DNA from: an uncultured Acidobacteriota bacterium | GTDB taxonomy: Bacteria > Acidobacteriota > Vicinamibacteria > Vicinamibacterales > SCN-69-37 | Reading direction: 5' to 3' | Length of the DNA: 64,000 nucleotides | Assembly (NCBI GenBank): GCA_963730095.1 | Contig: CAVSQJ010000001.1 | Span: 689,599 to 753,598, forward strand | Shown here: piece after piece, positions 1,582 to 33,886 of the stretch | Position numbering within the stretch: the first letter of the stretch is position 1 | How the letters are laid out: every line of letters begins with the position of its first letter | The notes under the pieces: model-generated | Told to the model about the DNA's origin: nothing | Databases searched by the model: none | Seen by the model: only the letters and a program-made list of their open reading frames with translations | Position numbers and translations under genes: made by a program

Positions 1582-4239
1582 ATGAAGCTCCTGCGTCGTC
1601 TCGCTCGATGGCCGTGGCGGCGCCAGGACGCCGCGCTCGCGGAAGAGATCGAGTACCACCGCGCGCAGATTCAGGCCGACCTCGAACGGCACGGCACGCC
1701 GGCGGCTGAGGCGGCCGCCGTCAGCCGGCGCGCGATGGGCAACCTCACGCTGGCTCGCGAGGACGCGCGCGAAGTCTGGATTGTCTCCTGGGCCGATCGC
1801 GTGTGGCGCGATGCGAAGCACGGCGTGCGCGGCCTGCGCCGCGAGCCGACGTTCGCGCTCACGACAATCATCACGCTTGCGCTCGGCGTGACCGCGACGA
1901 CCGCCGTGTTCAGCGTCGTCGACGCCGAGCTGTGGCGGCCGCTGCCGTTTCCGCGGCCCGAACAGCTCGTCGCGATCTACTCGCATGGCCCGTCGTCTCG
2001 CACGCTGGCCGATGGGCACACCATGGCCGACTTGCAGGAGTGGCGGACGAGCGCGCCCGCGTTCTCCGGCATCGCGGCGTCGGGCGACACGACGCGCCGC
2101 GTGCTCCAACTCGACACCGCCGAGTCCGTCGTTGTGGACGAGGTCACGTCGAACTATTTCGCCCTGCTGGGCAAGGCGCCGATTGCGGGCCGGACGTTTA
2201 CCGAGGTCGATGCCGGTCCGCGCGAGGCCGTGCTCACCGACCGCGCCTGGCGCCGTCTCTTCAATGGCGACGCGTCGGTCGTCGGCCGATCGTTCGCGCT
2301 CGACGGCCAGCCGACGACGATTGCCGGCATCGTGACTGCCGATGACGTCCTCGGCCCGGATCCCGATCTCTTCATCGCCATCTCCGATCGCCCGCCGGGC
2401 GGCGCGGTCGCGGGGGCGTCGGTGTTCGGTGTGATCGGCAGGCTGCGCCCGGGCGTGAGCGTCGAGGCGGCGAGGTCCCAACTGCAGGCCCTCACGACGC
2501 GACGCACGGCCGCGTCCTCGGGCTCCGTGCCGCACACGATCGTGATCGAGGACTTGCGGACGTACTACACCGGCTCGAGCTGGCATCCGCTCGTCTTTTT
2601 TCTCGGCGCGTCCCTGGTCGTGCTGCTGCTGAGCGCGGTGAACGCGGCGACGCTGCTGCTCGCGCGGGCCTCGCGGCGGACGCGCGAGTTCGCCCTGCGA
2701 GGCGCGCTAGGCGGCGGCAGCAGCGCGCTGGCGCGCCAGCTCGTCGTCGAAGGCGCCCTGCTCGCGATCCCCGCGGGCGCGCTCGGGCTGTTGCTTGCGG
2801 GCTGGGCGGTCCGTGCCGTCACGACGGCGCTTCCCGAGCGTCTTCTGCAGCACGGCACGCGCATTCCCGTCGACACGCGCGCCGCGGCATTTGCGGTCGT
2901 GGTGACGATGGCGACGACGGTGGTGTTCGCGCTTGCGCCGATCGCGTTCGCTCGGCGCATCAATCTATCGGGCGCGCTTGGACAGGGTGAGCGGAGCGGC
3001 CAGTCGGCCGCGGCAGGGCGTGCGCGCCTCGCGCTCGTCACCGTGCAAATCGCGCTGACGATGATGTTGCTCTTCGGCGCGGGAATTTTCGTGAAGAGCT
3101 TCGCGGCGCTCACGCACGTGCCGCTCGGGTTCGATCCGGCGAGCGCGATCTCGCTGCGCGTGTCGCTCAGCGGCCCGCGCTATTCAAGCGAGGGGGCCAT
3201 TCGCGACTATGCCCAGCAGCTGCTCGAGGGCGCGCGCGCCGTGCCCGGCGTGCAGCAGGCCGCGATCGGCACGAGCTCGCCGCTCGGCAGCGGTCCGCTC
3301 ATCCGCTCCGTCGCGCGGGACCTCCCGCGGCCGGCGGCCGGCAACGAGCCGCGCGCGATTCTCCGCGCGGTCGATGCGGGCTACTTTCGCACGCTGGGCA
3401 TCCGCCTCGTGCATGGCCGCGAGTTCACGCCTGAAGATACGGCCGCCGCGCCGCGTGTGGCGATCGTCAACGAAGCGCTTGCGCGCCAGATATTTGGCGA
3501 CGCGAGCCCGCTGGGCCGCGCGCTCGAGTTCGTTGCGCGGTCCGGGCGTTGGGCCTCCCAGGTCGATTCCGCGGTCATCGTCGGCGTCGCGTCCAACGTC
3601 AAGGAAGTGGGACTGAACGAGGTCGAGTTCGGAGACGTGTACCTGCCCTTTGCGCAGCTCCCATCGCCGTCAATCGAGCTCGTCGCGCGAACTGGCGTGC
3701 CGCCGCTCGGCGTGGCGGACGCGCTGCGGCAGCGCGCCGCGCGCGTCGATCCGGCGATGCCCGTCACGAGCCTCACCACGTTCGATACACGCGTGATCAG
3801 GGCGCTGCAGGGCGACCGGTTCAATCTGATTCTCATCGGCAGCTTCGCCGGCCTGGCGCTGCTGCTCGCCGCGATCGGGATCTACGGCGCCGTCGCGTAC
3901 CACGTGCAGGCGCGCACGCGCGAGTTCGGCGTCCGCCTCGCGCTTGGCGCGCGGCCGGCGCGACTGGTCGCCGCGGCGCTCTGGCAGAGCGCGCGGCTGG
4001 GCCTCGTCGGCGCCGCGCTTGGCCTGACCGGAACGCTCGCCCTCGCCGTGCCGCTTGGCAACGCCCTCTACCTCGTGCCCGGCGACCACGAGGGCTTGCT
4101 CTACGGCGTGAGCACCACCGACCCGGCGATGCTGGCGCTGGCTGGTCTTGGCATCGTGTTGATGGCTCTCGCGGCGGGCGCCTTCCCGGCACGGCGCGTG
4201 GCGCGCGTCGATCCCGTCCTCGCCTTGAGGCAGCAGTAG
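1582..4239 (+). CDS. ADOP-type duplicated MacB/FtsX permease with N-terminal helical prefix
   Basis: 885 aa. Order: prefix (EEIEYHRAQIQADLERHGTPAAEA), TM, large periplasmic domain, FtsX TM block, second periplasmic domain, second FtsX block. C-terminus is ARRVARVDPVLALRQQ. Confidence 0.9.
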   Translation: MKLLRRLARWPWRRQDAALAEEIEYHRAQIQADLERHGTPAAEAAAVSRRAMGNLTLAREDAREVWIVSWADRVWRDAKHGVRGLRREPTFALTTIITLALGVTATTAVFSVVDAELWRPLPFPRPEQLVAIYSHGPSSRTLADGHTMADLQEWRTSAPAFSGIAASGDTTRRVLQLDTAESVVVDEVTSNYFALLGKAPIAGRTFTEVDAGPREAVLTDRAWRRLFNGDASVVGRSFALDGQPTTIAGIVTADDVLGPDPDLFIAISDRPPGGAVAGASVFGVIGRLRPGVSVEAARSQLQALTTRRTAASSGSVPHTIVIEDLRTYYTGSSWHPLVFFLGASLVVLLLSAVNAATLLLARASRRTREFALRGALGGGSSALARQLVVEGALLAIPAGALGLLLAGWAVRAVTTALPERLLQHGTRIPVDTRAAAFAVVVTMATTVVFALAPIAFARRINLSGALGQGERSGQSAAAGRARLALVTVQIALTMMLLFGAGIFVKSFAALTHVPLGFDPASAISLRVSLSGPRYSSEGAIRDYAQQLLEGARAVPGVQQAAIGTSSPLGSGPLIRSVARDLPRPAAGNEPRAILRAVDAGYFRTLGIRLVHGREFTPEDTAAAPRVAIVNEALARQIFGDASPLGRALEFVARSGRWASQVDSAVIVGVASNVKEVGLNEVEFGDVYLPFAQLPSPSIELVARTGVPPLGVADALRQRAARVDPAMPVTSLTTFDTRVIRALQGDRFNLILIGSFAGLALLLAAIGIYGAVAYHVQARTREFGVRLALGARPARLVAAALWQSARLGLVGAALGLTGTLALAVPLGNALYLVPGDHEGLLYGVSTTDPAMLALAGLGIVLMALAAGAFPARRVARVDPVLALRQQ

Positions 4240-9694: not shown

Positions 9695-12373
9695 CTAGTC
9701 CTGTCGAAGCGCGGTCAGCGGATCGACGGAGAGTGCGCGTCGCGCAGGCACGTAGGCTGCGAGGATGGCCATGACGGCGAGCGTGCCCGCCACGATGGCG
9801 CGCGTGGGCACGTCCGCGGCGCTGACGCCGATGAGCAGACTCTGCAGCAGGCGCCCGACCCCGGCGGCGCCCGCCAGTCCGAGCGCCACGCCGGCGACGA
9901 GCAGCAACGCGGCCTGACCCAGCACGAGCGCGAGCACGCGATGCCGTGGCGCGCCGAGCGCCACCCGCAAGCCGATCTCGCGCGTGCGTTGGGCGACGGC
10001 ATACGCGAGCACGCCATACAGCCCGATCGCCGCGAGCAGCAGCGCGATCACCCCGAGGATCGTTCCGAGCAGCGCGGCCGCGCGACGCGTGAACAGCGCG
10101 GCGTCCGTATATCCGGCCAGCGTGACGACCAGATCGGTCGGCACCGCGGGATTGAGCTCGCGCACTGCGCGCCGTACGTCCGGCAGGATCGAGGGCGCGT
10201 CGCCGGCGGTTCGGATGTGCGCGGCAAAGCCAGTGCTGGGCACGTAGTGCTGGCGCATCGGCACCCAGAAGTAGGGCGTGGCTGGCTCCGACACTTCCGC
10301 GACCTTGATGTCGCGCGCGACGCCGACGATCGTGATCGGCGCGCCCCACCCGGTGAAGCGCCGCCCGATCGGATCCGCGCCCGCGAAATACCTTGACGCG
10401 AACGTGTGATTGACGGTCGCGACGAGTGGCGCGCTGGCATCATCGCGCTCGGTGAAATCGCGACCGCCCAGGAGCGGGATTTTCATCGTGCCGAAGTACC
10501 CGGGCGAGACCATGTTGCGATAGATCTTCATGTTCTCGCCGGGCTGCGGGACGTACCCGTCGACGTCGAGCGTTTCCCACGAGCCCAGCGAGAATCCGAG
10601 CGGGACGTCCTCGGCGAAGCTCACGGTCTCGACGCCCGGCAGGAGGCGCAGGCGTTCGCCAAGGCGATCCTGGAAGGCGAGTCCGCCGTCGCGCTCGTAC
10701 CCGGACGATCCGAGATCGAATCCCACGAGCAGCACGCCCCGCGCGTCGAAGCCGGGATCGACGGCGCGCGCGTTCTGAAAGGTGCGCAGCAGCAAGCCGC
10801 AGCCGACGAGCGCCATCACCGCCAGCATCAGCTCGACGATGACGAAGCCGTTACGGAGCCAGCGCGCCCGCGGCCCAGGCGTCGACGCGCGCGAAGCCGT
10901 CAGGGCCTCCGCGACGCGCACGCGACGGGCCGCGAGCGCGGGCATCACGCCGAAGAGCAGGGCGACGAAGAGCGACAGACCGCCGGCGAACGCGAGCGCG
11001 GGCAGATCGATCCCGCCGATGAATGCGATTGGCAGCTCGCTTGCCGGCAGCAGGGCGATGAAGCCGCGTGAGGCCCATGCGGCCACGAGGACGCCGCCCG
11101 CACCGCCGAGCGCGGCCAAGAGCGCCGCCTCGACGAGCAATTGCCGCACGATCCGGCCGCGCGTCGCGCCCACCGCGAGCCGCACGGCCAGCTCGCGATC
11201 GCGACCGATCGCCTGCGCGAGCAACAGGCTCGAGAGGTTGGCGCTGACGATGATCAACACCGCCGCGCCGAGGCCGAGGAGCGCGACGAGCAACGGACCG
11301 AGATCGTGCTGCGCGCCGTACGGGGCGTCGACGAACGGCAGCGCCGCCGCGCGAACGTCAGCGTTGCTGTCGGGATGCTCGGCCGCGAGTTGACGGGCGA
11401 TGGACGCCACGTCCTCGTTGGCGAGCGCGACGTTCGTGCCCGGCCGCAAACGCCCGAGCATCTTGAGCGGACGACTCTCGCGATTCGACAGCCAGTCACC
11501 GCTCTGGCTGAGCGTCTGTTCCATCATCACGGGCACATACACGTCGAAGGCGAGGCCCGTGATCGTCCCGCGAAACGCGCGCGGCACGACGCCGACGACG
11601 GTAAGGTTGCGCCGATTGAGCCGAACCGTCGCGCCGATCGCGTCCGGCCGGCGCTGGAATTGCCGCTCCCAGAGTCCTTCGCTGATCACGGCGACCGGGA
11701 CGCCGCCCGGCCGTTCCTGCTGTTCGTCGGCGGAAAAGAAGCGTCCGGCCGCGGGCGCAAGACGCAGGACGTCGAAGTAGTTGCCCGAGACGAACAGCGC
11801 CCATACGCGCTCCGATCCATCGTCGGGCCCGAGGCGCAACGGCCTGTCGTTGAAGGCGAGCAGACCGTCGAAGGCGCGCGATCGATCGCGCACGTCGCGA
11901 TAGTCGAGCCAGGAAGAATCGATGTACGTGCCGGCCGGCGTGACGGACTCGACGGCGACGATGCGGCCCGCGGCCGGGACGCCGGGCAGCGGATTGAGCA
12001 GCACCTCGTTCATCCAGCCGAAGGCCGCGGTCGTCGCGCCGATGCCGAGGGCCAGCGACAGCGCGGCGACGGCCGACACGCCTGGATGGCGACGCAGTAC
12101 CCGAATGCCGTACCGCGCGTCCTGGGCGAGGGCATCGACGATCGGGAGGCCGCGACGATCGCGCACCGCCTCCTTCACGCTCTCGACGCCGCCGAATCTC
12201 ACGAGCGCGGCCCGTCGCGCGTCGTCCGGGGACATGCCGGCGTGCACGTTGTCGTCGATCTGGAGCTGCAGGTGGCTCTCGAGCTCCGCGGCGAGGTCCG
12301 CGTCGCGGTCGTGCGCACCGAGAGCGACCGAGACGCGTGCGATCCAGGCGCGCAGCCGGCCGAGCGGAGTCAT
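9695..12373 (-). CDS. ADOP-type duplicated MacB/FtsX permease with helical prefix
   Basis: Start taken at MTPLGRLRAW, which forms an ATGA overlap with the PadR stop. Prefix is ELESHLQLQIDDNVHAGMSPDDARRAALVRFGG. Two FtsX blocks; ends SVDPLTALRQD. Confidence 0.9.
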   Translation of the reverse strand: MTPLGRLRAWIARVSVALGAHDRDADLAAELESHLQLQIDDNVHAGMSPDDARRAALVRFGGVESVKEAVRDRRGLPIVDALAQDARYGIRVLRRHPGVSAVAALSLALGIGATTAAFGWMNEVLLNPLPGVPAAGRIVAVESVTPAGTYIDSSWLDYRDVRDRSRAFDGLLAFNDRPLRLGPDDGSERVWALFVSGNYFDVLRLAPAAGRFFSADEQQERPGGVPVAVISEGLWERQFQRRPDAIGATVRLNRRNLTVVGVVPRAFRGTITGLAFDVYVPVMMEQTLSQSGDWLSNRESRPLKMLGRLRPGTNVALANEDVASIARQLAAEHPDSNADVRAAALPFVDAPYGAQHDLGPLLVALLGLGAAVLIIVSANLSSLLLAQAIGRDRELAVRLAVGATRGRIVRQLLVEAALLAALGGAGGVLVAAWASRGFIALLPASELPIAFIGGIDLPALAFAGGLSLFVALLFGVMPALAARRVRVAEALTASRASTPGPRARWLRNGFVIVELMLAVMALVGCGLLLRTFQNARAVDPGFDARGVLLVGFDLGSSGYERDGGLAFQDRLGERLRLLPGVETVSFAEDVPLGFSLGSWETLDVDGYVPQPGENMKIYRNMVSPGYFGTMKIPLLGGRDFTERDDASAPLVATVNHTFASRYFAGADPIGRRFTGWGAPITIVGVARDIKVAEVSEPATPYFWVPMRQHYVPSTGFAAHIRTAGDAPSILPDVRRAVRELNPAVPTDLVVTLAGYTDAALFTRRAAALLGTILGVIALLLAAIGLYGVLAYAVAQRTREIGLRVALGAPRHRVLALVLGQAALLLVAGVALGLAGAAGVGRLLQSLLIGVSAADVPTRAIVAGTLAVMAILAAYVPARRALSVDPLTALRQD

Positions 12374-12711
12374 GACTGCTCCGGCGCCAGGAACCGGGCG
12401 AGGATGTCGGTCGTCCGCGCCCACTCGCGCGCTTCCTTCTCGATCTGCTTGCGGCCCGCGCGGGTGAGCCGATAGAACTTCGCGCGCCGGTTGTTCTCGG
12501 ACACGCCCCAGGACGACGCGATGAACCCTTCCTGCTCGAGCTTGAGCAGGGCGGGGTAGAGCGTGCCGTAGTTGAGCGTGAGGCGGTTCCCGCTCGTCTG
12601 CTCGATCCGGCGCGCGATGCCGTACCCGTGCAGCGGGCCGAGCGCCTCGAGCGTCCTCAGCGCCATCAGGGCCAGCGTGCCCTGCCAGATGTCGGTCTTG
12701 TCCGTGTCCAT
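12370..12711 (-). CDS. PadR family transcriptional regulator
   Basis: From MDTDKTDIWQGTLALMALRTLE..HGYGIARRIE..GTLYPALLKLEQEGFIASSWGVSENNRRAKFYRLTRAGRK. Confidence 0.9.
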   Translation of the reverse strand: MDTDKTDIWQGTLALMALRTLEALGPLHGYGIARRIEQTSGNRLTLNYGTLYPALLKLEQEGFIASSWGVSENNRRAKFYRLTRAGRKQIEKEAREWARTTDILARFLAPEQS

Positions 12712-12721
12712 GCCCGCTGCT

Positions 12722-12740
12722 CCTATGGGATAACCATAGG
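12722..12740. promoter_or_regulatory. Candidate PadR operator: CCTATGGG-ATA-ACCATAGG
   Basis: 19-bp palindrome (7 of 8 arm positions pair), 11 nt upstream of the PadR start and overlapping its AGGAG RBS. The half-site resembles the one at 1208-1226 (CCYATSG). Confidence 0.4.
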
Positions 12741-15737: not shown

Positions 15738-18332
15738 CTACTCGCCGAGCACGCGGACGGGATCGAGCGTGAGGATGCGTCGGGCCGGTACCCAGGCGGC
15801 CGCCGCCGAGACCACGATCAGTGCGCCCGCGAGCATCCAGGCGGCCGGCCAGAACGCGATCGGCCGCGCGGCGAGCGCACTGACCACGTGCGGCTCGACC
15901 AGTCGCGCGATGCCCACGCCGATGACGATGCCCATGGCGCCGAGGCGGAGGAGGCGCCCGACCGTCTGGCGCAGCACGCCGCCGGCCGTCGCGCCGAGCG
16001 CCAGCCGCACGCCCATGTCGCGCCGCTCGCGCGCGACGACGAACGCGACGAGCGCGTAGACGCCGCACAGCGCGAGGGCGCCGCCGGCCGCACCGAACGC
16101 CGCGGTCACGACCGCCGCGTGCCGCCGTTGCGACAACGACGTCTGCTTGAGGTCCTCCATCGTTCGCAGCTCGAGCACCGGCAGCGTCGCGTCCACGTCG
16201 TGCATCCCCGCGCGCACCGCGCCTGCCGTCGTCTCGATGTGTGGCGTGCGGATCCACATGTACAGGTCTTCCGTCGACGCGGCGTCCGGATACTGCCGGT
16301 ACGGCAAGTACCACGTTTCCGTGTAGTCGCCGCTGTCCTCCACGGCCGGAACGACGCCGACGACGCGCATCCACGGGAACGGCGAGTCGGTGGCGCCGCG
16401 CTTCACGCGCGTCCCCACGGCATCGCCACCGTGGAAATAGCGCCGCGCGAACCGCTCGTCGATCACGACGACGGGCTCGCTGCCCGCGACGTCGTGCCCG
16501 TCGAACACGCGGCCGGCGAGCGTCCGCAGCGCGAGCGCCGAGAAGTACATCGGCGTCACGAGGCGCCAGTTCACGACGCTCGCCGTCTGCGTTGTCGTCG
16601 GCTGACCCTCGACCGACATCTGCGATCCCCAGTCACCGCAGCAGAGCGGGTTCACGGTGCTCATGCCGACGCCACCCGGGCCGGCGATCGGCGCGAGGCG
16701 GTCGATGATGCGATCCACGATCGAAAGGTGCGCGGCCGCGGTCCGTCGACTCGGTGTGCCGAGCTCGACGTGCCACGTGAGCAGATCGTCAGTCTCGAAG
16801 CCGACGTCGCGGTTTTCGAGCTGCCGCAACCCCGCGCCGACCGTCACGGCCGTCGAGATCAAGAGCGCCGCGAGCGCCAGCTCGGCGACGACCAGCGATC
16901 CAAGCGCACGCCGGCCGGAGACCGACGATCCCGCGCGCGCCGTCGCGCGAAGCGCCTCGGTCAGATCGGTGCCCGGCGCGCGCCACGCCGAGAGCGCGCC
17001 GACGAGGACGCCGCAGACGATCGCGAGGGCCGCCGTCATGCCGACGACTCGCCAATCAAGTTCGAGCGAGCTCATCGTCGCCTGCTCGACGAGCACGTGG
17101 GGCGTCAGCACGATCAACGCGCGCTTCAGGAGCGATGCGATCACCAGGCCGAGCGCGCCGCCCGCGCCAAAGACGATCAACGCCTCGCCGATGAGGTGCC
17201 GCACTTGGCGTCCGCGCCCGCAGCCCAGCGCGGAGCGCACCGCCAGCTCGCGCTCGCGCGAGACGATGCGCGTGATGAAGAGCATCGTGACGTTGCTCGC
17301 GACGATGAGCAGGAGGATCGCGACGGCCCACGACAGCATCAGCACGACGCGGCCTTCGTCACCAAGCAGCACGTCTCGAATGTGGCGCACGCCTGGACCA
17401 TTGCCGTGCATCACGAGCGGGTAGTCGCGGACGAGCGCCGGACCCCGCGCGACGAGCCGGGCGTGCGCGTCCTCGAACGACACGCCGGACGCGAGGCGAC
17501 CGGCGAGAAACAGCCCGCGCTGCTCGACCGGCACGCGCGTCGGCCACCACGCGTCCTCGTCGTACGGGAAGCGATAGCCCGGGGGAAGGACGCCGACGAT
17601 CGTCCGGACGCCGCCGTCGAACGAGAGCGTCGCGCCAAGCACGTCGTCGTGACCGCCGTAGCGTTCGTGCCAGAGTCGATCGCTGATGAGCGCGACGCCC
17701 GCACCATCGCCCCGGGCCTCTTCCTCGGCGGTGAACAACCGTCCGAAGGCCGGCTGCAGGCCAAGCGCTTCGGTCCAGCCGGCGGTCACCGCGCCTGCCG
17801 CGATGCGTTCGGCGTCGCCTTGTCCGACGATGGCGGTCCACACCGGATTGAGGGCGGCCGCCACGGAGAACGCGCCGCTGTCTTTCATCGCTTGAAGCGA
17901 CGCGCCGCTGCCGTCGACCCAGCGAATCGCGCCGTCGGGCGCGCGCGAATATTCCTGCACGCGGACGAGCCGATCGGCGTCGGCGAACGGGAGCGCGCGG
18001 AGGAACGTCGCATTCGCGACGCTGAACACCGCGCTGTTGGCGCCCAGCCCGAGGGCCACGATGCCGACCGTACCGGCAGCGAACGCCGGGGCGCGGCGCA
18101 AGCGGCGGAGCGCGTCGCCCAAGTCGAACGCGATCTCGCGGAGCAGCGTGCGCAGGCGATCGCGGCGGCGATGCGACGTCGCCAGCGAGACGAGCTCGCG
18201 CTCGAGGCCGGGCGGCGGCTGGGCCGCGCGGCCGTCGCGGGCGCGCATGTCGGCGTTGAATGCCAGCTCGGCCCGGACCTGCGCACGGGCATCGTCGTCA
18301 TCGGCGCCAGGACGGCGCGTCACGGGAGTCAT
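15738..18332 (-). CDS. ADOP-type duplicated MacB/FtsX permease
   Basis: Start at MTPVTRRPG, forming an ATGA overlap with the PadR stop at 18329-18331. Two FtsX blocks; ends LDPVRVLGE. Confidence 0.9.
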   Translation of the reverse strand: MTPVTRRPGADDDDARAQVRAELAFNADMRARDGRAAQPPPGLERELVSLATSHRRRDRLRTLLREIAFDLGDALRRLRRAPAFAAGTVGIVALGLGANSAVFSVANATFLRALPFADADRLVRVQEYSRAPDGAIRWVDGSGASLQAMKDSGAFSVAAALNPVWTAIVGQGDAERIAAGAVTAGWTEALGLQPAFGRLFTAEEEARGDGAGVALISDRLWHERYGGHDDVLGATLSFDGGVRTIVGVLPPGYRFPYDEDAWWPTRVPVEQRGLFLAGRLASGVSFEDAHARLVARGPALVRDYPLVMHGNGPGVRHIRDVLLGDEGRVVLMLSWAVAILLLIVASNVTMLFITRIVSRERELAVRSALGCGRGRQVRHLIGEALIVFGAGGALGLVIASLLKRALIVLTPHVLVEQATMSSLELDWRVVGMTAALAIVCGVLVGALSAWRAPGTDLTEALRATARAGSSVSGRRALGSLVVAELALAALLISTAVTVGAGLRQLENRDVGFETDDLLTWHVELGTPSRRTAAAHLSIVDRIIDRLAPIAGPGGVGMSTVNPLCCGDWGSQMSVEGQPTTTQTASVVNWRLVTPMYFSALALRTLAGRVFDGHDVAGSEPVVVIDERFARRYFHGGDAVGTRVKRGATDSPFPWMRVVGVVPAVEDSGDYTETWYLPYRQYPDAASTEDLYMWIRTPHIETTAGAVRAGMHDVDATLPVLELRTMEDLKQTSLSQRRHAAVVTAAFGAAGGALALCGVYALVAFVVARERRDMGVRLALGATAGGVLRQTVGRLLRLGAMGIVIGVGIARLVEPHVVSALAARPIAFWPAAWMLAGALIVVSAAAAWVPARRILTLDPVRVLGE

Positions 18333-18685
18333 CGGCTGGTCCCCGAAAGCAGGCGCGTGACCGCGCGGGCGAACACGGTCCAATCGCGCGTGCGCCTGGC
18401 GAGCGCGGCCCGGCCGCGCGGCGTCAGCGCGTAGAACCGCGCGCGCCGGTTCGCCTCGCTGCGTCCCCACGATCCCTGAATCAGGCCGCGGCGCTCGAGC
18501 CGGTAGAGCGCCGGATAGAGCGATCCGTCCTCGATCCGGCCGGCGTCGCCGAGCGCCTGCTCGATCTTCCGGCCGATGCCGTAGCCGTGGTCGCTCGACT
18601 CGGCGAGCACGCGCAGCACCATCGCCTCGAGCGTGCCGCGAAGCAGCTCGCCGCGCTCGTCGGCTTCTCCAGAGCGTCTAGCCAT
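18329..18685 (-). CDS. PadR family transcriptional regulator
   Basis: From MARRSGEADERGELLRGTLEAMVLRVL..HGYGIGRKIE..GSLYPALYRLERRGLIQGSWGRSEANRRARFYALTPRGR. Start M13 of the ORF was chosen by alignment to the paralogs. Confidence 0.85.
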   Translation of the reverse strand: MARRSGEADERGELLRGTLEAMVLRVLAESSDHGYGIGRKIEQALGDAGRIEDGSLYPALYRLERRGLIQGSWGRSEANRRARFYALTPRGRAALARRTRDWTVFARAVTRLLSGTSR

Positions 18686-18751
18686 CGACCCCAAGATACT
18701 CTGGGGAGACGGCCGGTGCAAGCGCGCCAGGCACGGCCGGCCGGCGCGGCG

Positions 18752-19786
18752 TCAGGACGCCGCCTGGGCCCCGCTCAGCGCCATGCCCTCGCGCGCGTAG
18801 CGCGCGTGCAGGCGCTTGACGAACTCGTGCCGCACGAGGTCCTGGTCGGTGAACTCCCGCGCGCGCATGAACACGCTGAATCGCACGCGCGCGTCGGCCA
18901 TCGTCCGGAACCGGATCGCCGGCTCGAACTCCGGGACGCCGCCCGGGACGCGCCGCATCACGTCGCGCGCGACGTCGAGCGTCACCGCTTCGAGCCGCTC
19001 GAGGTCCCGCGAGGAGTCCACGCCCACGTCGACCGCGACGTCCACGTCACTCGAGGCCGGCCGATGGTTCGCCACGACGGTGACGATCGCCTGCGACAGC
19101 TTGGCGTTGGGCACGATGATGATGCTGCCCGACATCATCTGGATGCGCGTCGCGCGCCAGTTGACGTCCACGATGTACCCCTCGACGCCCGAGTCGAGCT
19201 TGACGAAATCGCCGATGCGGATCTGGCCCGCCGCCGAGAGGAACACCCCGGCGAAGAGATTCGAGAGCGGCTCCTGCAGCGCAAGCGCGACCGCGAGGCC
19301 GCCGACGCCGAGCGCGGTCAGCATCGGCGTGATCGACACGCCCAGGCCGTTCAGAATCACGAGCGCGCCGAGCACGAGGATGACGAGCCGCGTCAGATTC
19401 TGCGTGAGCGCGGCGACGGGCACGCCGGGCGAATGCGGCCCATAGGTCGCGACGAGCCTGACGCCGATGCTCGCCAGGGCCAGCGTCGCCAGCAGCGCGC
19501 CCAACGCGAAGATCGCGCCCGACGCGAACGCCTTGATGCCAGGATCGAGCGGCCAGTACGCGAGCGAAAGCCACGCGCCGCCGAGAAACGCCAGCCACGG
19601 CACCCGCCCCTTGAGCTCGACGGCGACGTCATCCCAGTGGCCGCGCATATGGCCCGCGAGCCGGCTGAGACGGCCAATGATGAGGCTGTTGACGACGCGG
19701 CCCGCGAGGTACGCGATGGCGAGCGTCGCCACGGTCTCGACCGTGTGCGTCGCCCATTCCGGCCATTGCTGAAGATTCAGTGACAT
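18752..19786 (-). CDS. MscS-family mechanosensitive channel
   Basis: From MSLNLQQWPEW (GGAGGGAG RBS). TM helices are followed by PLSNLFAGVFLSAAGQIRIGDFVKL..GYIVDVNWRATRIQ..IIIVPNAKL. Confidence 0.85.
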   Translation of the reverse strand: MSLNLQQWPEWATHTVETVATLAIAYLAGRVVNSLIIGRLSRLAGHMRGHWDDVAVELKGRVPWLAFLGGAWLSLAYWPLDPGIKAFASGAIFALGALLATLALASIGVRLVATYGPHSPGVPVAALTQNLTRLVILVLGALVILNGLGVSITPMLTALGVGGLAVALALQEPLSNLFAGVFLSAAGQIRIGDFVKLDSGVEGYIVDVNWRATRIQMMSGSIIIVPNAKLSQAIVTVVANHRPASSDVDVAVDVGVDSSRDLERLEAVTLDVARDVMRRVPGGVPEFEPAIRFRTMADARVRFSVFMRAREFTDQDLVRHEFVKRLHARYAREGMALSGAQAAS

Positions 19787-19943
19787 CCCGGCTCCCTCCG
19801 CCGCAGAACGATCCGCGTGGGTTCGGGGGGAGCGGCGACCTGCGCTCACCTGCATCGTCGCCCGGGCCGTGCCTCGGGGTCAACCCTCATCACGTGACGT
19901 CGGCGCGCGGTTAGGCTAACGTGGAGCGAACAGCGATTCATCG

Positions 19944-20771
19944 ATGGCGCGACTCCTCGCGATCTGTCCAGATGTGGGACTCGTGGCGGCGCTCTCCAGC
20001 GGCCTCCCGGGCCACGACTTCGTCCTCTCGGACGGCAACGTCGAGGCGGTGCGGCGCCTGCGCCAGCTGGCGGTCGACGTCGTCGTCACGGATCCGATGA
20101 CGACGGTGCCGGAGGACATTGCGCTCGCGGAGGAGCTGCGCAGCGCGCGCCCTGGCGTGAAGGTGATCTCGCTCGCGCCCGCGACGAGCCACGAGGACGT
20201 CGTCGCGGCGCTGCGGGCGCACGTGTTCGCGTGCTTCACGCCGCCGTTCGACCACGACGAGATCGCGGCGATGGGGCTGGCTGCGCTCCAGGCGGTGGAC
20301 TGGACGCACGGCATCGAGGTCGTCTCCGGGCTGCCGTACTGGATGACGCTGCGTGTGTCGTGCCATCTGCTCACGGCCGAGCGGCTCGTGCGGTTCATGA
20401 CGGAGTTCGAGGACACGCTGCCCGATCGCGAGCGCGACCTGCTCATGACCGCGTTCCGCGAGATGCTGGTCAACGCGATGGAACACGGCGCGGGCTTCGA
20501 TCCGAACAAGGTGATCGAGGTCACCGCCGCGCGGACCAATCGCGCGATCGTGTTTCACTTCCGCGATCCTGGCAACGGCTTCGATCGCGCCGATCTGGCG
20601 CACGCGGCCAAGTCGCGCCTGCCTGAAGAAGTGATCGACACGACGCTTCGCCGCGAACAGGAGGGCCGCCGCCCGGGCGGTTTCGGAATGCTCCTCGTCA
20701 AGCAGATCGCCGACGAGCTCGTGTACAACGAGCGGGGCAACGAGGTGCTGTTGATCAAGCACCTGAAGTGA
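19944..20771 (+). CDS. Receiver-like domain fused to an RsbW/SpoIIAB-type HATPase (Ser-kinase/anti-sigma-like) domain
   Basis: N-terminal CheY-like fold keeps the VVVTD acceptor position, but the conserved Lys position reads TPPF. The C-terminus has N-box EMLVNAMEHG, G1 RDPGNGF and G2 GGFGMLLV. Confidence 0.7.
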   Translation: MARLLAICPDVGLVAALSSGLPGHDFVLSDGNVEAVRRLRQLAVDVVVTDPMTTVPEDIALAEELRSARPGVKVISLAPATSHEDVVAALRAHVFACFTPPFDHDEIAAMGLAALQAVDWTHGIEVVSGLPYWMTLRVSCHLLTAERLVRFMTEFEDTLPDRERDLLMTAFREMLVNAMEHGAGFDPNKVIEVTAARTNRAIVFHFRDPGNGFDRADLAHAAKSRLPEEVIDTTLRREQEGRRPGGFGMLLVKQIADELVYNERGNEVLLIKHLK

Positions 20772-20780
20772 GCGATATCG

Positions 20781-23195
20781 ATGGGCACGCTCCTGCAGGA
20801 CGTGCGTTTCGCCCTGCGCAATTTGCGCCGGACGCCGGCATTTCCGCTGGCTGCCATCGGCACGCTCGCCCTCGGCATCGGCGCGACGACGGCGATCTTC
20901 GGGACGGTCAACGCGGTCCTGCTGAAGCCGCTGCCGTACCCGCGCGCGCAGGATCTCTACTCGCTTCGGACGAGGCTCACCGACGGCCGCACGACGAGCG
21001 GCCTGCTCTCCCCGGTGGAAATCCTGCGGCTCAATTCGCCGAACCTGTCCATTGAGCGGGCGGCGGGTCTCTTTCCGCAGGACGTGACGCTCTTGCGCGA
21101 CGACGGCACGCCGGTTCACACGGAGGTGTACGCCGTCACCGAGGGCTTCTTCGAGCTCTTCGGCCTGCCGATGACGCTCGGCGGCCTCACGCATGAGCAG
21201 TTCGTCGCGAACGGTCCGCCCGTCGTCGTGATCTCGTATCCGACGTGGCAAGACCTGTTTCACGGCGATCCGGCGGTCGTCGGCAAACCGATCCGCTTCG
21301 CGGAGATCACGACAACGGTCGCCGGCGTCGCGCCACGCGGGTTCGACACGCCCCACGGTGCGACCATCTGGTTTGGCACGGCGCTCGACCCGCAGGGCGT
21401 GAATCACAACTTCGAAGGGTTCATGCGGCTCGCGCCTGGCGCGGGCCTCGACCGGGCGCGCAGCGAGATGGCAAGCGTGATGAACGGGCTCGCGCACGAC
21501 TATCCCGCGAGCGACAACTCGCGCGTCTATGTCGTGCGATCGCTCGTCGAGTCGATCGTCGGCGATCTCGGGCCAATTCTCGTCGTCGTGCTGTCGGCGA
21601 CCGCGCTGCTGCTCGTGCTGGCGTGCGTGAACGTGACCAACCTGCTGCTCGCGCGCGGTGCGGCGCGGGCGAGGGAGATGGCGGTCCGCGTCGCGCTCGG
21701 TGCCGGCCGTGGGCGCATCGTCCGCCAGCTGCTGACCGAGTCGGTGCTGCTCGCGACGGCGGGCGCGGCGGTCGGCGTGCTCGCGGCATGGATCGGCACT
21801 CGCGTACTGCTCGAGATCGGCGCGTCGAAATTGCCGCGCCTCGAGTCGGTGACGTTCGACGGGCATGTGCTGCTGTTTGCGCTCGGCGCGCTCGTCGCGA
21901 GCGGCGTGTTCGTCGGGTTTGCGCCGGCGCTGCGGCTGGCCGCGACCGACGTCAAGACGCTGATGAACGAGACCGGCCGTTCGACGTCCGGCGGCCGCGG
22001 CACCGCGCGCTGGCTCGCCGTGATGACCGTGGCCGAGATCGCGCTCGCGGTGACGCTCGTGACCGGGGCGGGCTGGCTCATCCGGGGATTTGCCAATCTC
22101 CGTACGACCGATCCAGGTTTCGCGCCGGAGGGACGCCTGGTGTTCGACGTGGCGTTCATCGGACCCAAGTATCGTGACGGCGTGGCCGTGACTGCCGCGG
22201 CGAACGACCTGCTCGATCGGCTGCGCGCGCTGCCGGGCGTCGTCGCCGCGGGCGCGACGTCGAATTTTCCGTTTCGCGGCGGCAGCGGCCAGGAAAACTC
22301 GCTGCTCGTGCAGCGTCATGGCGAGACGATGGACCCGGCGCATCCGCTCGGGTCCCGGCAGCGCACGGCCAGTCCGGGCTACTTCGGCGCGATGGGGATC
22401 GCGCTCATCGCCGGGCGCGATTTCACGATCGACGATCGCCAGGACACCAGGCCCGTCGTGATCGTCAATCAGGCGTTCGCGCGCAGGAACCTGGCGGGGC
22501 AGGATCCGCTCACCGCGCGTTTTTCGGCCGGCTATCCGACGATCGACACGCGCACCGAGTTCACGATCGTCGGCGTCGTTGCGGACGTGCGCCAGCGATC
22601 GCTCAGCGATCCGCCCGAACCGGCGTACTACAACCCGCACGGGCAAGGCACGCCCCGCCGGCACACGGTCGTCGTTCACACGCGCCAGGCGGATCTCGCG
22701 TCGCTCGAATCCTCGATTCGGAGCGAGATCAGACAGACCGATCCGCAGATGGCGATCGACTTCGCGGACGCGACCGAGCTCGTCGGATCGACCCTGCGGC
22801 GGCAGCAGCTGGGCATGACGCTGATGCTGCTCTTTGGCGCGGCGGCAGTTGCGCTCGCGGCCGTGGGGATCTACGGCGTGATCGCCTACGCGGCCGCACA
22901 GCGCCGGAGCGAGGTCGCGACGCGACTGGCGCTCGGCGCGACGCCGTGGAATGTGTTCTGGCTCGTCATGAAAGAGGGGCAATGGCTCACCGCGCTCGGC
23001 GCGGTGACTGGCGTCCTCGTCGCGTATTTTTCCGGTCGCGTCGTGTCGAGCCGGCTCTACGAGGTGCGCGCCTCCGATCCGCTGATTCTCTTGTCCGCGA
23101 CCGCGCTCGTCGCCGCGATCGCGATCGCCGCGACGATGATCCCCGCGTTTCGTGCGTCGCGACTCGATCCGTCGCGCGTGCTGCGTCCCGATTAG
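20781..23195 (+). CDS. ADOP-type duplicated MacB/FtsX permease lacking the N-terminal prefix
   Basis: Starts directly at MGTLLQDVRFALRNLRRTPAFPLAAIGTLALGIG (TM1). Two FtsX blocks; ends LDPSRVLRPD. It lies 9 nt after the previous gene. Confidence 0.9.
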   Translation: MGTLLQDVRFALRNLRRTPAFPLAAIGTLALGIGATTAIFGTVNAVLLKPLPYPRAQDLYSLRTRLTDGRTTSGLLSPVEILRLNSPNLSIERAAGLFPQDVTLLRDDGTPVHTEVYAVTEGFFELFGLPMTLGGLTHEQFVANGPPVVVISYPTWQDLFHGDPAVVGKPIRFAEITTTVAGVAPRGFDTPHGATIWFGTALDPQGVNHNFEGFMRLAPGAGLDRARSEMASVMNGLAHDYPASDNSRVYVVRSLVESIVGDLGPILVVVLSATALLLVLACVNVTNLLLARGAARAREMAVRVALGAGRGRIVRQLLTESVLLATAGAAVGVLAAWIGTRVLLEIGASKLPRLESVTFDGHVLLFALGALVASGVFVGFAPALRLAATDVKTLMNETGRSTSGGRGTARWLAVMTVAEIALAVTLVTGAGWLIRGFANLRTTDPGFAPEGRLVFDVAFIGPKYRDGVAVTAAANDLLDRLRALPGVVAAGATSNFPFRGGSGQENSLLVQRHGETMDPAHPLGSRQRTASPGYFGAMGIALIAGRDFTIDDRQDTRPVVIVNQAFARRNLAGQDPLTARFSAGYPTIDTRTEFTIVGVVADVRQRSLSDPPEPAYYNPHGQGTPRRHTVVVHTRQADLASLESSIRSEIRQTDPQMAIDFADATELVGSTLRRQQLGMTLMLLFGAAAVALAAVGIYGVIAYAAAQRRSEVATRLALGATPWNVFWLVMKEGQWLTALGAVTGVLVAYFSGRVVSSRLYEVRASDPLILLSATALVAAIAIAATMIPAFRASRLDPSRVLRPD

Positions 23196-28120: not shown

Positions 28121-30715
28121 TCAGCTGTCGCGAAGAATGCGGGCGGGATCGAGCCCGGCGGCCCGCCGTGCCGGGCCCCAGCACGCCGCGGCGGCGACGG
28201 CCACGAGCGTGACGGGAACGATCGCGAGCGTTGCCGGATCGGTGGGACTCACGGCGAAGAGCACGGCGCGGAGCAGCCGCGCGGTCAGCAAGGCCGCGCC
28301 GAGTCCGACGCCGACGCCCGCGAGCACGAGGCTCAATCCGCGCGAAAGCACGAGGCGCCGGATCGCGGCCGGATCGCCGCCGAGCGCCAGCCGCACGCCG
28401 ATGTCTCGCGCGTGCTGCTGGACGAAGTGCGCCATCACGCCGTAGATGCCGACGACGGACAGCACGAGTGCGGTGAGTGCGAACATCCCGATCAGCGTGC
28501 CGAGGTACGTCGGCTTGGTGATCGAATCGGCGACGAGATCGTCGCCCGTCGCGATGTCGGAGATCGCGAGCCCAGGATCGAGCGCGCGCACGGTTTGCTG
28601 CAAGGCGAGCGAGAGTGACGCCGGATCGACGGCCGTGCGCAGCACGAAGTACGCGCTTGGCAGGTCCTCGAGCGGGAAGTACACCGTGCCGTCCGGCTCG
28701 GCCTCCAGCCCTGTCCACTTCACGTCGTCGACGACGCCGACGACGGTCGTCCAGGGACAGGACGTGCAGCCGCCACTGTGCAATCGCCGGCCGATGACGT
28801 CCTCGCCGGGAAAAAAACGATTCGCCCAGGCGCGGTCGACGACGATGACGTCATCGGCGAGCGAGTGCGAGTCGAGCAGTCGGCCGCGCTCGAGGCGCAG
28901 GCCGACGGTCTTGAAGAAGTCCGGAGACACGCCGACCCAGGTGCAGATCGGCTGATTCTGGCCGACGGGCGCCGGATGATCTTCGAGATCGAAATTGTTC
29001 TGCTGGCCGGCGTCGTCCGGCGGCCGGCTGTCGGCGAGCGCGGCCGACGTCACGCCCGGCAGCGCGGCCAGCCGCTCGACGGATCGCGTCCAGAAATCCG
29101 CGCGGCCGGTGTCCTTGGCGTAGGCGGGGCCGGTGAGCTGGACGGCGGCGGTGAGCAGATGCGACGTGTCGACGCCGACGGGTACGTGCCGGAGATGGTC
29201 GAGGCTCGAGAGCACGAGTGTCGCAGCGATGATGAGCGGCGTCGCGAGCGCGAACTCGAGCGCGACCAGCACGCGCCGCAACCGGCGCGCGGCGGGCGCG
29301 TCGCTGTTCGATCGGCCGCTCGCCGCGAGCGCCTGGTCGATGCGCAGCCGCGAGCCGTGGATTGCCGGGACGATGCCGATCACGAGACCGCTCGAGGCGG
29401 CGAGGATCGCCAGCCACCCGAGCACGGGACCCGACAACCGGACTTCGTCGATCCGCGGGATGTCGCTCGCGCCGTAGCTCCTCAGCAGCTGAATCGCGCC
29501 CGCGGCCACGGCGAGCGCGATGAGCGCCGCCGCAATCGTGAGCACGCCGGACTCTGCCGCGATCGTCTGCAGCAGCCGGACCCGCGACGCACCGAGCGCC
29601 CCGCGAATCGCCAACTCGCGACTGCGGCCGAGCGCGCGCGCGACGAGCAGGTTGACGGCGTTCGCGCACGCGATGAGCAGGACGCACGCCACGGCCGCCA
29701 GCGCGACGAACAGCGTCGAGCCGACGTCGCGGACGACGCGCGACTTGAGATCCTGCAGGCCCCAGGTGGCCTTTTCGTCCTGATATGACGATCGCCAGAT
29801 CGGAAAGAGCCGCCGGTTGGTCGCGCGCAAGGTGTCGAGAGCGGCAGCGCGGGAGATCCCGGGCCGCAGGCGACCCAGCGCCATCGTGAAAAACGGACCC
29901 TTGCGCGTCGGCGTCGGCCAGTGCGCGGCGGTGAAGAGCGAGATGTCGTGCTCGAGCGGGCCGCTCGGGCCGGCGAGCACCCCGACGATCGTCGCGCTCC
30001 CGCCGTCGATCGTCAGCGTTCGGCCGACGATCATGGGATCGGCTCCGAAGCGCTTCGCCCAGTACGGTGTCGTCAGCACGACGAGGGCGCCGCCGCGCGC
30101 ATCATCCGACGGGTCGAACAGTCGGCCGAGCGCGGGCTTCTGGCCGAGGAGCGGGAAATACGATCCGGTGACGTCCTTCGCGTTCACGCGCTCCGATTCC
30201 CCGTTCGTCGTCACGGTGACGCGATTCGTCTGGTAGCCGGCGATGCCGCTGAGGGCGGGATGATCGGCCTCGAGCGCGCGGTAGTCGACGACGGAGAAGC
30301 GGAAGTGAAAGGGCGGCGTGTCGGTGTAGATCCACGCGAGCGAGCCGGCGTCGGCGTAGGGCAGAGGGCTCACGAGCACCGCGCGGATCACGCTCACCAT
30401 CGCGGTCGTTGCGCCCAGGCCGATGCCGACCGTGAGCACGATCGTCGCGGCCACGATTGGCGCGCGCGCGAGGCTGCGGAGGCTATAGAGGACGTCCTGC
30501 CCCAGGTGCGTGACGCTCGATCGCGCCTCGTCCCACGTGTGGCTCATGCGCGCTCCCGCCAGGTGAAACGCGAACCCGACCCGCTGCCGGCGCAGCCATC
30601 GGGCGGCAGCGCGGTCGCCGTCCTGCCGGCGGTGCAGTTCGTAGAGCTCGGCCAGCTCGCTTTCGATCACGCGACGGTCCGCGTCGCTCACGAGCCACCG
30701 CGTCAGCCAGCGCAT
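28121..30715 (-). CDS. ADOP-type duplicated MacB/FtsX permease (different prefix type)
   Basis: 864 aa. Prefix is MRWLTRWLVSDADRRVIESELAELYELHRRQ. Two FtsX blocks; ends LDPARILRDS. The start is 1 nt after the PadR stop. Confidence 0.9.
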   Translation of the reverse strand: MRWLTRWLVSDADRRVIESELAELYELHRRQDGDRAAARWLRRQRVGFAFHLAGARMSHTWDEARSSVTHLGQDVLYSLRSLARAPIVAATIVLTVGIGLGATTAMVSVIRAVLVSPLPYADAGSLAWIYTDTPPFHFRFSVVDYRALEADHPALSGIAGYQTNRVTVTTNGESERVNAKDVTGSYFPLLGQKPALGRLFDPSDDARGGALVVLTTPYWAKRFGADPMIVGRTLTIDGGSATIVGVLAGPSGPLEHDISLFTAAHWPTPTRKGPFFTMALGRLRPGISRAAALDTLRATNRRLFPIWRSSYQDEKATWGLQDLKSRVVRDVGSTLFVALAAVACVLLIACANAVNLLVARALGRSRELAIRGALGASRVRLLQTIAAESGVLTIAAALIALAVAAGAIQLLRSYGASDIPRIDEVRLSGPVLGWLAILAASSGLVIGIVPAIHGSRLRIDQALAASGRSNSDAPAARRLRRVLVALEFALATPLIIAATLVLSSLDHLRHVPVGVDTSHLLTAAVQLTGPAYAKDTGRADFWTRSVERLAALPGVTSAALADSRPPDDAGQQNNFDLEDHPAPVGQNQPICTWVGVSPDFFKTVGLRLERGRLLDSHSLADDVIVVDRAWANRFFPGEDVIGRRLHSGGCTSCPWTTVVGVVDDVKWTGLEAEPDGTVYFPLEDLPSAYFVLRTAVDPASLSLALQQTVRALDPGLAISDIATGDDLVADSITKPTYLGTLIGMFALTALVLSVVGIYGVMAHFVQQHARDIGVRLALGGDPAAIRRLVLSRGLSLVLAGVGVGLGAALLTARLLRAVLFAVSPTDPATLAIVPVTLVAVAAAACWGPARRAAGLDPARILRDS

Positions 30716-30716
30716 C

Positions 30717-31040
30717 TCAGCTCCTGGGCGTTTTGAGCAGCGGCGCGAGGCCGCGCCACAGACGCGCGTGCTCGACCTGGTGCGCCTTGACGACGGCGAG
30801 GCCGCGCCTGGTCAGCTTGACGTAGCGGCGCGTGCGCCCGGCGTCGGGCGCGTCCAGCCGCGAGGCCACGAGGCCTTTGGCTTCGAGGCGGCTCAGGGCG
30901 ATGAAGACCGCCGCGGGCGCGACGCGCCGGCCCGCGCGCTTCTCGAGCTCGAGGAGCAGCGGCACGCTGTAGGTCTCGCCGCGCTGGCGCAGCATCGCGA
31001 CGAGGACCTGGAGCTCGAACGTCTGGAGCGACTTCGGCAT
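30717..31040 (-). CDS. PadR-like transcriptional regulator (short subtype)
   Basis: 107 aa: FELQVLVAMLRQRGETYSVPLLLELEKRAGRRVAPAAVFIALSRLEAKGLVASRL..RRYVKLTRRG. Confidence 0.8.
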   Translation of the reverse strand: MPKSLQTFELQVLVAMLRQRGETYSVPLLLELEKRAGRRVAPAAVFIALSRLEAKGLVASRLDAPDAGRTRRYVKLTRRGLAVVKAHQVEHARLWRGLAPLLKTPRS

Positions 31041-33454: not shown

Positions 33455-33532
33455 TCTAAGACCGTTCCCGCCAACCAACCGCGGGCCGGGATCGTCTCAG
33501 GTAGATGATCTAGTGGTCGGAGGCGCGAGCGC

Positions 33533-33886
33533 ATGCCGAAACGAGGAACGCCGCCCATCGAGGGCGATCTGCTGCAGGGCACGCTGGACCTGCTCATCCT
33601 GAGGACCGTCGCGCTCGGCGCGGCCCACGGCCACGCGATCGCGCACGCCATCGAGCGCCAGTCCGACGCGGTCCTCCAGGTCGAGCACGGCTCGCTCTAC
33701 CCGGCGCTGCACCGGCTCGAAGACCGCGGCTGGATCGCGTCGTTCTGGGGCACGTCGGAGAACAATCGCCGCGCGCGCTACTACCGCCTGACGCCGGCCG
33801 GCCGTCGCCAGCTCGCGCAGCAGACGTCACGGTGGGACGTGCTCGTCGGCGCCATCAACCGCGTGCTCCGACCGACGGGAGGCTAG
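33533..33886 (+). CDS. PadR family transcriptional regulator
   Basis: [64 protein letters not shown]. The stop directly abuts the permease GTG start. Confidence 0.9.

Follow-up and report, generated by a model that had tools for sequence, protein, structure and literature searches.

HAAS and standalone PadR proteins have been proposed to form a dyad that could stand in for two-component systems: HAAS would change its conformation and thereby release or reconfigure PadR (Ravi et al., 2024, PMC11237479). According to the same study, the HAAS superfamily is marked by profile-profile similarity to DUF1700, DUF1129 or DUF1048, by three consecutive helices, the third of which is kinked at a conserved GxP, and by a cytoplasmic position N-terminal to a multi-TM or sensor domain, and HAAS always adjoins a standalone PadR (Ravi et al., 2024, PMC11237479). 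HAAS has also been assigned to the exact architecture that concerns us here, an N-terminal domain on ADOP permeases (Ravi et al., 2024, PMC11237479, Table S4), the example given being ACO32024.1 (ACP_2125) from Acidobacterium. The release model has been restated in a later preprint. This work deals with the N-terminal prefixes of the ADOP permeases, and with the padR genes in front of them, in a stretch of 64,000 nucleotides (hereafter, the window; G+C content of about 69%) from an uncultured Acidobacteriota bacterium (contig CAVSQJ010000001.1, positions 689,599 to 753,598). We put at 65% the probability that the padR-ADOP pairs are two-gene modules of the HAAS-PadR kind described in the literature, and at about 65% that the prefix is the PadR-coupling element.

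The pairs of the window share with the system of Ravi et al. (i) a standalone PadR upstream, in the same gene order; (ii) an N-terminal helical domain before a duplicated FtsX/MacB-PCD permease; and (iii) the role suggested for them, in which a single step would replace a two-component system. They differ from it in that the prefixes of the window stay under the Pfam HAAS threshold and the GxP is mostly G-G/N. In Listeria, PadR repressors control adjacent genes for DUF1700 or FtsW-like membrane proteins (Hauf et al., 2019, PMC6624303). The LltR-Lmo0600 (DUF1700) and LstR-FtsW/RodA-homologue operons of Listeria monocytogenes resemble the pairs of the window, as padR shares there a transcript with a downstream gene, repressed by PadR, for a membrane protein bearing an N-terminal DUF1700/HAAS (PMC6624303). 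However, their membrane partners have 4-6 transmembrane segments or are FtsW-like instead of being ADOPs, the host is a Firmicute, the similarity to the prefix sequences is not significant, and HAAS-PadR contact is likewise putative.

Curated NCBIfam models exist for each component: NF038403 (perm_prefix_1; cutoff 30 bits), NF038404 (perm_prefix_2), TIGR03434 (ADOP; cutoff 622.3 bits) and TIGR03433 (padR_acidobact; cutoff 101.8 bits). In the window, NF038403 is passed by three prefixes, TIGR03434 by five ADOPs and TIGR03433 by four PadRs, while two prefixes, one PadR and one ADOP core fall under the cutoffs; in any case, these are naming models which assign no function. A looser parallel is BceAB-BceRS, where the transport activity of an FtsX-family permease, which has a large extracellular domain, is signalled to a partner kinase. 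By analogy only, the FtsX/MacB-type permease would be here the sensor that controls its own expression, but the output in BceAB-BceRS passes from a histidine kinase to a response regulator and does not rely on direct contact with a DNA-binding protein.

The idea of prefix-PadR signalling, put forward in an earlier note on this DNA, is a rediscovery of a published hypothesis. Its novelty is low because the concept, the exact architecture and curated NCBI models for every part already exist. What is added here is incremental: (i) the all-or-none association of the prefix with PadR, expressed in numbers; (ii) the homogeneity of tandem ADOP arrays; (iii) the co-variation of prefix type with PadR subtype; and (iv) candidate operators upstream of padR.

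Association of Prefix and PadR

Six ADOP permeases (A1 to A6) are encoded in the window, all of them with duplicated MacB_PCD+FtsX modules (TIGR03434, PF12704, PF02687), and their closest ADOP relatives come from Gemmatimonas/Gemmatimonadales metagenome-assembled genomes (57-59% identity). PadR genes (PF03551) lie directly upstream of five of the six (A1, A2, A3, A5 and A6) and are named R1, R2, R3, R5 and R6 after their partners. The earlier note had seen shared peptides ahead of the first transmembrane helix (TM1) in the permeases at 1582, 9695 and 33887, that is, in A1 (1582-4239, + strand), A2 (9695-12373, - strand; 892 amino acids) and A3 (33887-36580, + strand). These peptides are indeed present: 70-80 residues stand ahead of the start of the TIGR03434 match in each of the three proteins. 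When scanned alone, the prefixes of A1 (residues 1-93; 1582-1860, + strand), A2 (residues 1-97; 12083-12373, - strand) and A3 (residues 1-88; 33887-34150, + strand) score 33.7, 65.6 and 47.6 bits, respectively, on NF038403; the A1 match covers residues 7-61 and drops to 28.8 bits in the full protein. Since the three prefixes pass the curated cutoff, the shared pattern is a curated domain and not a product of chance. TM1 of the FtsX/MacB-PCD module comes right after the prefix, which is conserved across phyla and is predicted to be cytoplasmic, judging from MacB/FtsX topology and from an Arg-rich segment before TM1.

The permease described earlier as lacking both PadR and prefix, A4 (20781-23195, + strand), serves as an internal negative control: its TIGR03434 match starts at residue 4 and there are 3 in-frame codons upstream, which leaves no prefix, and the gene before it encodes a REC+HATPase_c_2 protein. 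The different prefixes noticed on the permeases at 28121 and 15738 were also borne out. A5 (28121-30715, - strand) carries a prefix of another type (residues 1-69; 30509-30715, - strand), which matched neither NF038403 nor NF038404 but aligns with the perm_prefix_2-type prefix of an ADOP from locus L056 (30% identity over 53 residues, E 2.5e-4; L056 itself reaches 34.6 bits on NF038404). The PadR closest to R5 is the partner of that same L056 ADOP. A6 (15738-18335, - strand) has a prefix (residues 1 to about 70) with no match to NF038403; of the conserved helix motifs of Gemmatimonadota-type prefix 1 it has kept just the first, AELAFxxxMR, and it matches the prefix of locus L021 (BLASTP E 0.002) and lacks the conserved G-x-S-P-E-E-A-R...G-G core, whereas its PadR, R6, is intact. 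It looks like an eroded prefix 1, and R6-A6 may be a decaying or re-purposed pair.

The association was then quantified in a sample made up of the window and 80 ADOP loci from GTDB genomes, which together hold 96 ADOPs with sufficient upstream sequence; all open reading frames of these loci were scored by local hidden Markov models (HMMs) for ADOP core, PadR and prefix 1. As the locus search used a two-sequence alignment of A4 and A3, with A4 as the confirmation query, the sample is skewed to prefix-less ADOPs, so its frequencies are not representative, although the association is not affected. Three corrections were made by hand: locus L009 was counted as a frameshifted PadR-prefix-ADOP, L005 passes NF038403, and seven long upstream extensions of open reading frames were set aside as junk. 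The correlation suggested by the permeases of the window held throughout: every PadR-adjacent ADOP has a prefix (21/21) and no prefix-less ADOP has a PadR (0/75; Fisher's exact p=8e-16). The earlier note had stated that prefixes commonly found on PadR-less ADOPs would speak against its idea, but in this sample they are not common there. Of the prefix-1 ADOPs (n=24), 16 are directly behind a PadR, 7 stand in tandem behind another ADOP and 1 (in locus L012) is an orphan; the ADOPs with other prefixes (n=5) are all behind a PadR, and the prefix-less ones (n=75) never are. A PadR-coupled prefix is a genuine feature of ADOPs, and an ordinary one for this phylum group.

Tandem ADOP arrays are never mixed, as a prefix-bearing copy is followed by a prefix-bearing copy (6/6) and a prefix-less copy by a prefix-less one (29/29). 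In loci L013, L050, L062, L078 and L080, a single PadR heads 2-3 ADOPs and each copy carries its own prefix, an arrangement which suggests that several sensors feed a single repressor. Close relatives of A2 differ in the same all-or-none manner: P0209 (77% identical; 892 amino acids) has both an overlapping PadR gene and a prefix, while P0212 and P0213 (60-63% identical; 810-812 amino acids) have neither and are found behind a peptidase gene. Across 14 non-redundant PadR-prefix-ADOP triplets, PadR identity is correlated with prefix identity (Spearman 0.34) and not with core identity (-0.37); the partial Spearman correlation between prefix and PadR, given core identity, is 0.44 (permutation p 0.005, n=14). 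Prefixes of at least three sequence types are found with PadR, and the prefix-2-like type co-occurs with a divergent PadR both in A5/R5 and in L056. Taken together, the association, the joint gain and loss and the co-variation indicate that PadR and prefix behave as one evolutionary module, which ADOP cores acquire or lose. As read from these sequence comparisons, prefix and PadR have a common history of gain, loss and diversification, separate from that of the permease core.

Candidate Operators and Proposed Mechanism

The padR and ADOP genes of each pair are tightly packed: R2/A2 and R6/A6 overlap by 4 nt (ATGA), R3/A3 have zero gap (the GTG start of A3 abuts the R3 stop, TAGGTG), R5/A5 are separated by 1 nt and R1/A1 by 7 nt. 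Judged from this layout, the padR-ADOP operon is translationally coupled. In an identical copy of A2, the JGI gene call has the same start, the same 892-amino-acid product and the same 4-nt overlap with a 113-amino-acid PadR. A GTG at 12424 was considered as the start of A2 and rejected; the true ATG is at 12373, in agreement with the JGI call.

Palindromes were found ahead of the padR genes. A perfect one, TCCCATCG-N5-CGATGGGA (1207-1227), lies 9 nt upstream of the R1 ATG, and another, CCTATGG-N5-CCATAGG (12722-12740), lies 10 nt upstream of the R2 start; both are unique in the window, and the chance expectation for the latter is 0.02. Upstream of R3, there is an imperfect palindrome with 1 mismatch, GATCGTCT-N5-AGATGATC (33490-33510), and a further palindrome (18689-18706) is also located upstream of a padR start. 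These elements are pair-specific and AT-containing, stand 9-45 nt ahead of the padR starts and, in the two perfect cases, have arms of 7-8 bp and a 5-nt spacer. A palindrome is present in 14 of 22 padR upstream regions, as compared with 29% of random control regions, and it often follows a TTGAC box. Such a pattern is suggestive of PadR operators, for which these palindromes are candidates.

In the mechanism proposed for these modules, the prefix, on the cytoplasmic face just ahead of TM1, would bind a PadR dimer. This binding would depend on the conformation of TM1 and of the MacB-like periplasmic domains, and its changes would shift the occupancy by PadR of the palindromic operator upstream of padR and, hence, transcription of the operon. 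As for the direction, we favour that a stimulus would make the prefix capture PadR, so that the operon would be derepressed, because the PadRs linked to HAAS in Listeria are repressors of the operons that encode them. The published text has it the other way round, with a stimulus that causes bound PadR to be released (Ravi et al., 2024, PMC11237479).

Few protein families of soil Acidobacteriota and Gemmatimonadota are as expanded, or as poorly understood, as the ADOPs. If the prefix does dock PadR, padR-ADOP pairs would be a widespread alternative to two-component systems and a simple test case, with one small domain and one small repressor. A bolder possibility, to which we give somewhat less than even odds, is that the five padR-ADOP pairs, which lie in a 36-kb stretch, are parallel, insulated one-step membrane-to-DNA channels, each with its own prefix-PadR code and operator palindrome, the ATPase-less ADOPs being periplasmic sensors and not transporters. 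In a sub-variant, prefix 1 and prefix 2 could be independent inventions instead of HAAS homologues. If such parallel channels exist, ADOP-PadR would be a major signal-transduction system of soil Acidobacteriota and Gemmatimonadota.

Relationship of the Prefix to HAAS

The likeness to the HAAS/DUF1700 domains of PadR-linked membrane proteins, which the earlier note had proposed by eye, shows in the predicted order of the helices, and the matches themselves are not significant. HAAS (PF22564; gathering threshold 27 bits) is the best Pfam match of the A2 prefix, with 19.3 bits and a library-wide E of 0.0015, which is under the threshold. The predicted order of elements is identical in the prefix and in bona fide HAAS: H1, H2, Gly loop, H3, Gly kink, H4, TM. 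Specifically, the AlphaFold2 model of the A2 prefix has helices at residues 3-17, 21-44, 49-61 and 63-72, with a break at G61-G62, and the HAAS reference model has them at 3-13, 19-38, 43-50 and 53-70, with G-S-P before the last one. The HAAS-defining GxP kink is G-G/N in most prefix-1 sequences and GSP, GGP or GNP in some; the kink Gly is nearly invariant, and Pro occurs in few members.

For profile comparisons, a reference set of HAAS was built from a DUF1700 consensus, which led to 16 real PF22564 proteins and, by profile search, to 6598 representatives, of which the top 148 were retained. An hhalign comparison of prefix 1 with these 148 DUF1700-type sequences is colinear over 64 columns and pairs the conserved glycines, with P=0.02 and a probability of 2.4%. 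On the HMM derived from the same set, real prefixes score about 0 bits vs. -5.8 for shuffled sequences, no single one being significant.

Regarding structure, the search of the prefix model against the PDB with Foldseek returned nothing below E 2. This negative carries no weight because the confident model of a bona fide HAAS found nothing either, not even 2O3L. A sequence profile search of the PDB with the prefix alignment gave a sole match, the UBA domain of ubiquilin-3 (E 0.11, not significant), and local Foldseek matches to the N-terminal UBA-like domain of EF-Ts had a root-mean-square deviation of about 1 Å over 33-35 residues (not significant). Residues 34-73, approximately, of the A2 prefix (about 12155-12274), whose core reads GMSPEEARRxALxxLGG, resemble UBA-like three-helix domains.

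Alternative Explanations

Several points weigh against the prefix being a HAAS-type domain that couples PadR to the permease. Homology to HAAS is sub-threshold in all tests and weakly supported: (i) of 48 diverse members of the prefix family, 2 matched PF22564 at E<=0.01 and 5 did so at E<=1, rates similar to those of noise families; (ii) the 120 best full-length homologues of A2 carry no precomputed HAAS (PF22564) annotation; (iii) the HMM from the 148 DUF1700-type representatives matched no ADOP prefix in 8739 open reading frames; and (iv) hhalign of the prefix with two HAAS profiles gave no significance. The AlphaFold2 model of the A2 prefix, though helical, has low confidence (pLDDT 61). 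Besides, the orphan ADOP of locus L012 (2740-5436) bears prefix 1, and the 2.7 kb ahead of it contain no PadR; its partner may be a PadR from another site. Because prefix and PadR are physically adjacent, their co-inheritance as a recombination unit could yield the co-evolution signal without contact. The palindromes could be mRNA hairpins in the 5' untranslated region or over the ribosome-binding site instead of operators. Finally, docking or release of PadR by the prefix is something that we infer, as the literature does. As an alternative, the prefix could be a PadR partner non-homologous to HAAS/DUF1700, that is, an independent small helical (UBA-like) domain which converged on the same role, the HAAS-like prefixes of ADOPs (prefix 1, prefix 2 and others) then being several unrelated families. 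The non-significant hhalign result, the scores of about 0 bits on the DUF1700-type HMM, the lack of PF22564 on those 120 homologues, the replacement of GxP by G-G/N in most prefix-1 sequences, the UBA domain as best PDB sequence match together with the non-significant EF-Ts matches, and the three or more prefix types found with PadR are all in line with it. Nevertheless, HAAS is still the top Pfam match, the alignment remains colinear over 64 columns with the conserved Gly positions matched, the helix order is that of HAAS, GSP, GGP or GNP occurs at the kink in some members, and HAAS was assigned through more sensitive searches by Ravi et al. (PMC11237479); we consider convergence unlikely.

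Less likely still is that the prefix serves the permease itself, through autoinhibition, oligomerisation or contact with an unlinked ABC ATPase, while PadR senses a small ligand and the correlation reflects common descent of one padR-ADOP lineage. PadR proteins, such as PadR and LmrR, classically respond to small ligands, and no ATPase gene was found near the ADOPs in the window. However, the PadRs of the window are about 110 amino acids long and have no additional ligand domain; the cores of prefix-bearing ADOPs do not make up a single lineage, and those most closely related to the core of A2 have neither prefix nor PadR; and PadR identity is tracked by prefix identity, not by core identity (Spearman -0.37). 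Actually, the prefix is not needed for permease function, because prefix-less ADOPs are abundant. The notion that prefixes are untranslated artefacts of over-extended open reading frames in high-GC DNA can draw on the seven ADOPs of the loci with long, junk-like upstream extensions, but it is refuted for the window: there the prefixes pass a curated HMM, belong to a family conserved across phyla and begin at the PadR stop codon, and the same start is predicted by an independent gene caller. The long extensions of those seven ADOPs were themselves considered as prefixes and rejected as junk, plausible starts being found right before the core. Coupling of PadR by a HAAS-type prefix remains our preferred reading.

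Gene Features and Neighbourhood

The criterion used for ADOPs adds the presence of two MacB_PCD+FtsX modules to the TIGR03434 cutoff. A1 to A5 score above this cutoff (703-824 bits), with 702.7 bits for A1 (match from residue 74), 810 for A2, 823.8 for A3 and 735 for A5 (match from residue 70), while A6 is under it (582.9 bits); the likely start of A6 is the ATG at 18335, which overlaps the R6 stop. Among the regulators, the TIGR03433 cutoff is passed by R1 (1236-1574, + strand; 137.7 bits, with 71.6 bits on PF03551), R2 (12370-12711, - strand; 132.1 bits), R3 (33533-33886, + strand; 150.5 bits) and R6 (18329-18685, - strand; 115 bits). The divergent R5 (30717-31040, - strand), partner of A5, falls short of it (33.9 bits; 34.5 bits on PF03551).

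Some observations refer to other loci. In the PadR-prefix-ADOP operon of L009 (2421-5547), the local HMM gives 83.5 bits for the prefix, which is out of frame with the ADOP core, the frameshift being either a sequencing error or a pseudogene. L081 and L082, with the closest prefix-less relatives of A2, share a conserved neighbourhood of GH92, peptidase S9, methyltransferase, FKBP and GH127 genes, in which the ADOP has no dedicated regulator. The 105-amino-acid protein P0059 is annotated with both PadR (PF03551) and HAAS (PF22564) in a single open reading frame. One explanation is a natural fusion and the other is read-through of overlapping PadR and HAAS genes, in a genome that looks Firmicute-like.

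Within the window, the REC+HATPase_c_2 gene upstream of A4 (19944-20771, + strand) is separated from it by 10 nt, and no homologue was found beside the ADOPs of the 80 other loci. This fusion with an RsbW-like kinase may be a local alternative regulatory link to A4, or a coincidence. Between the R6-A6 pair and the REC-HATPase/A4 pair, a gene for an MscS-type mechanosensitive channel is located (18752-19855, - strand).

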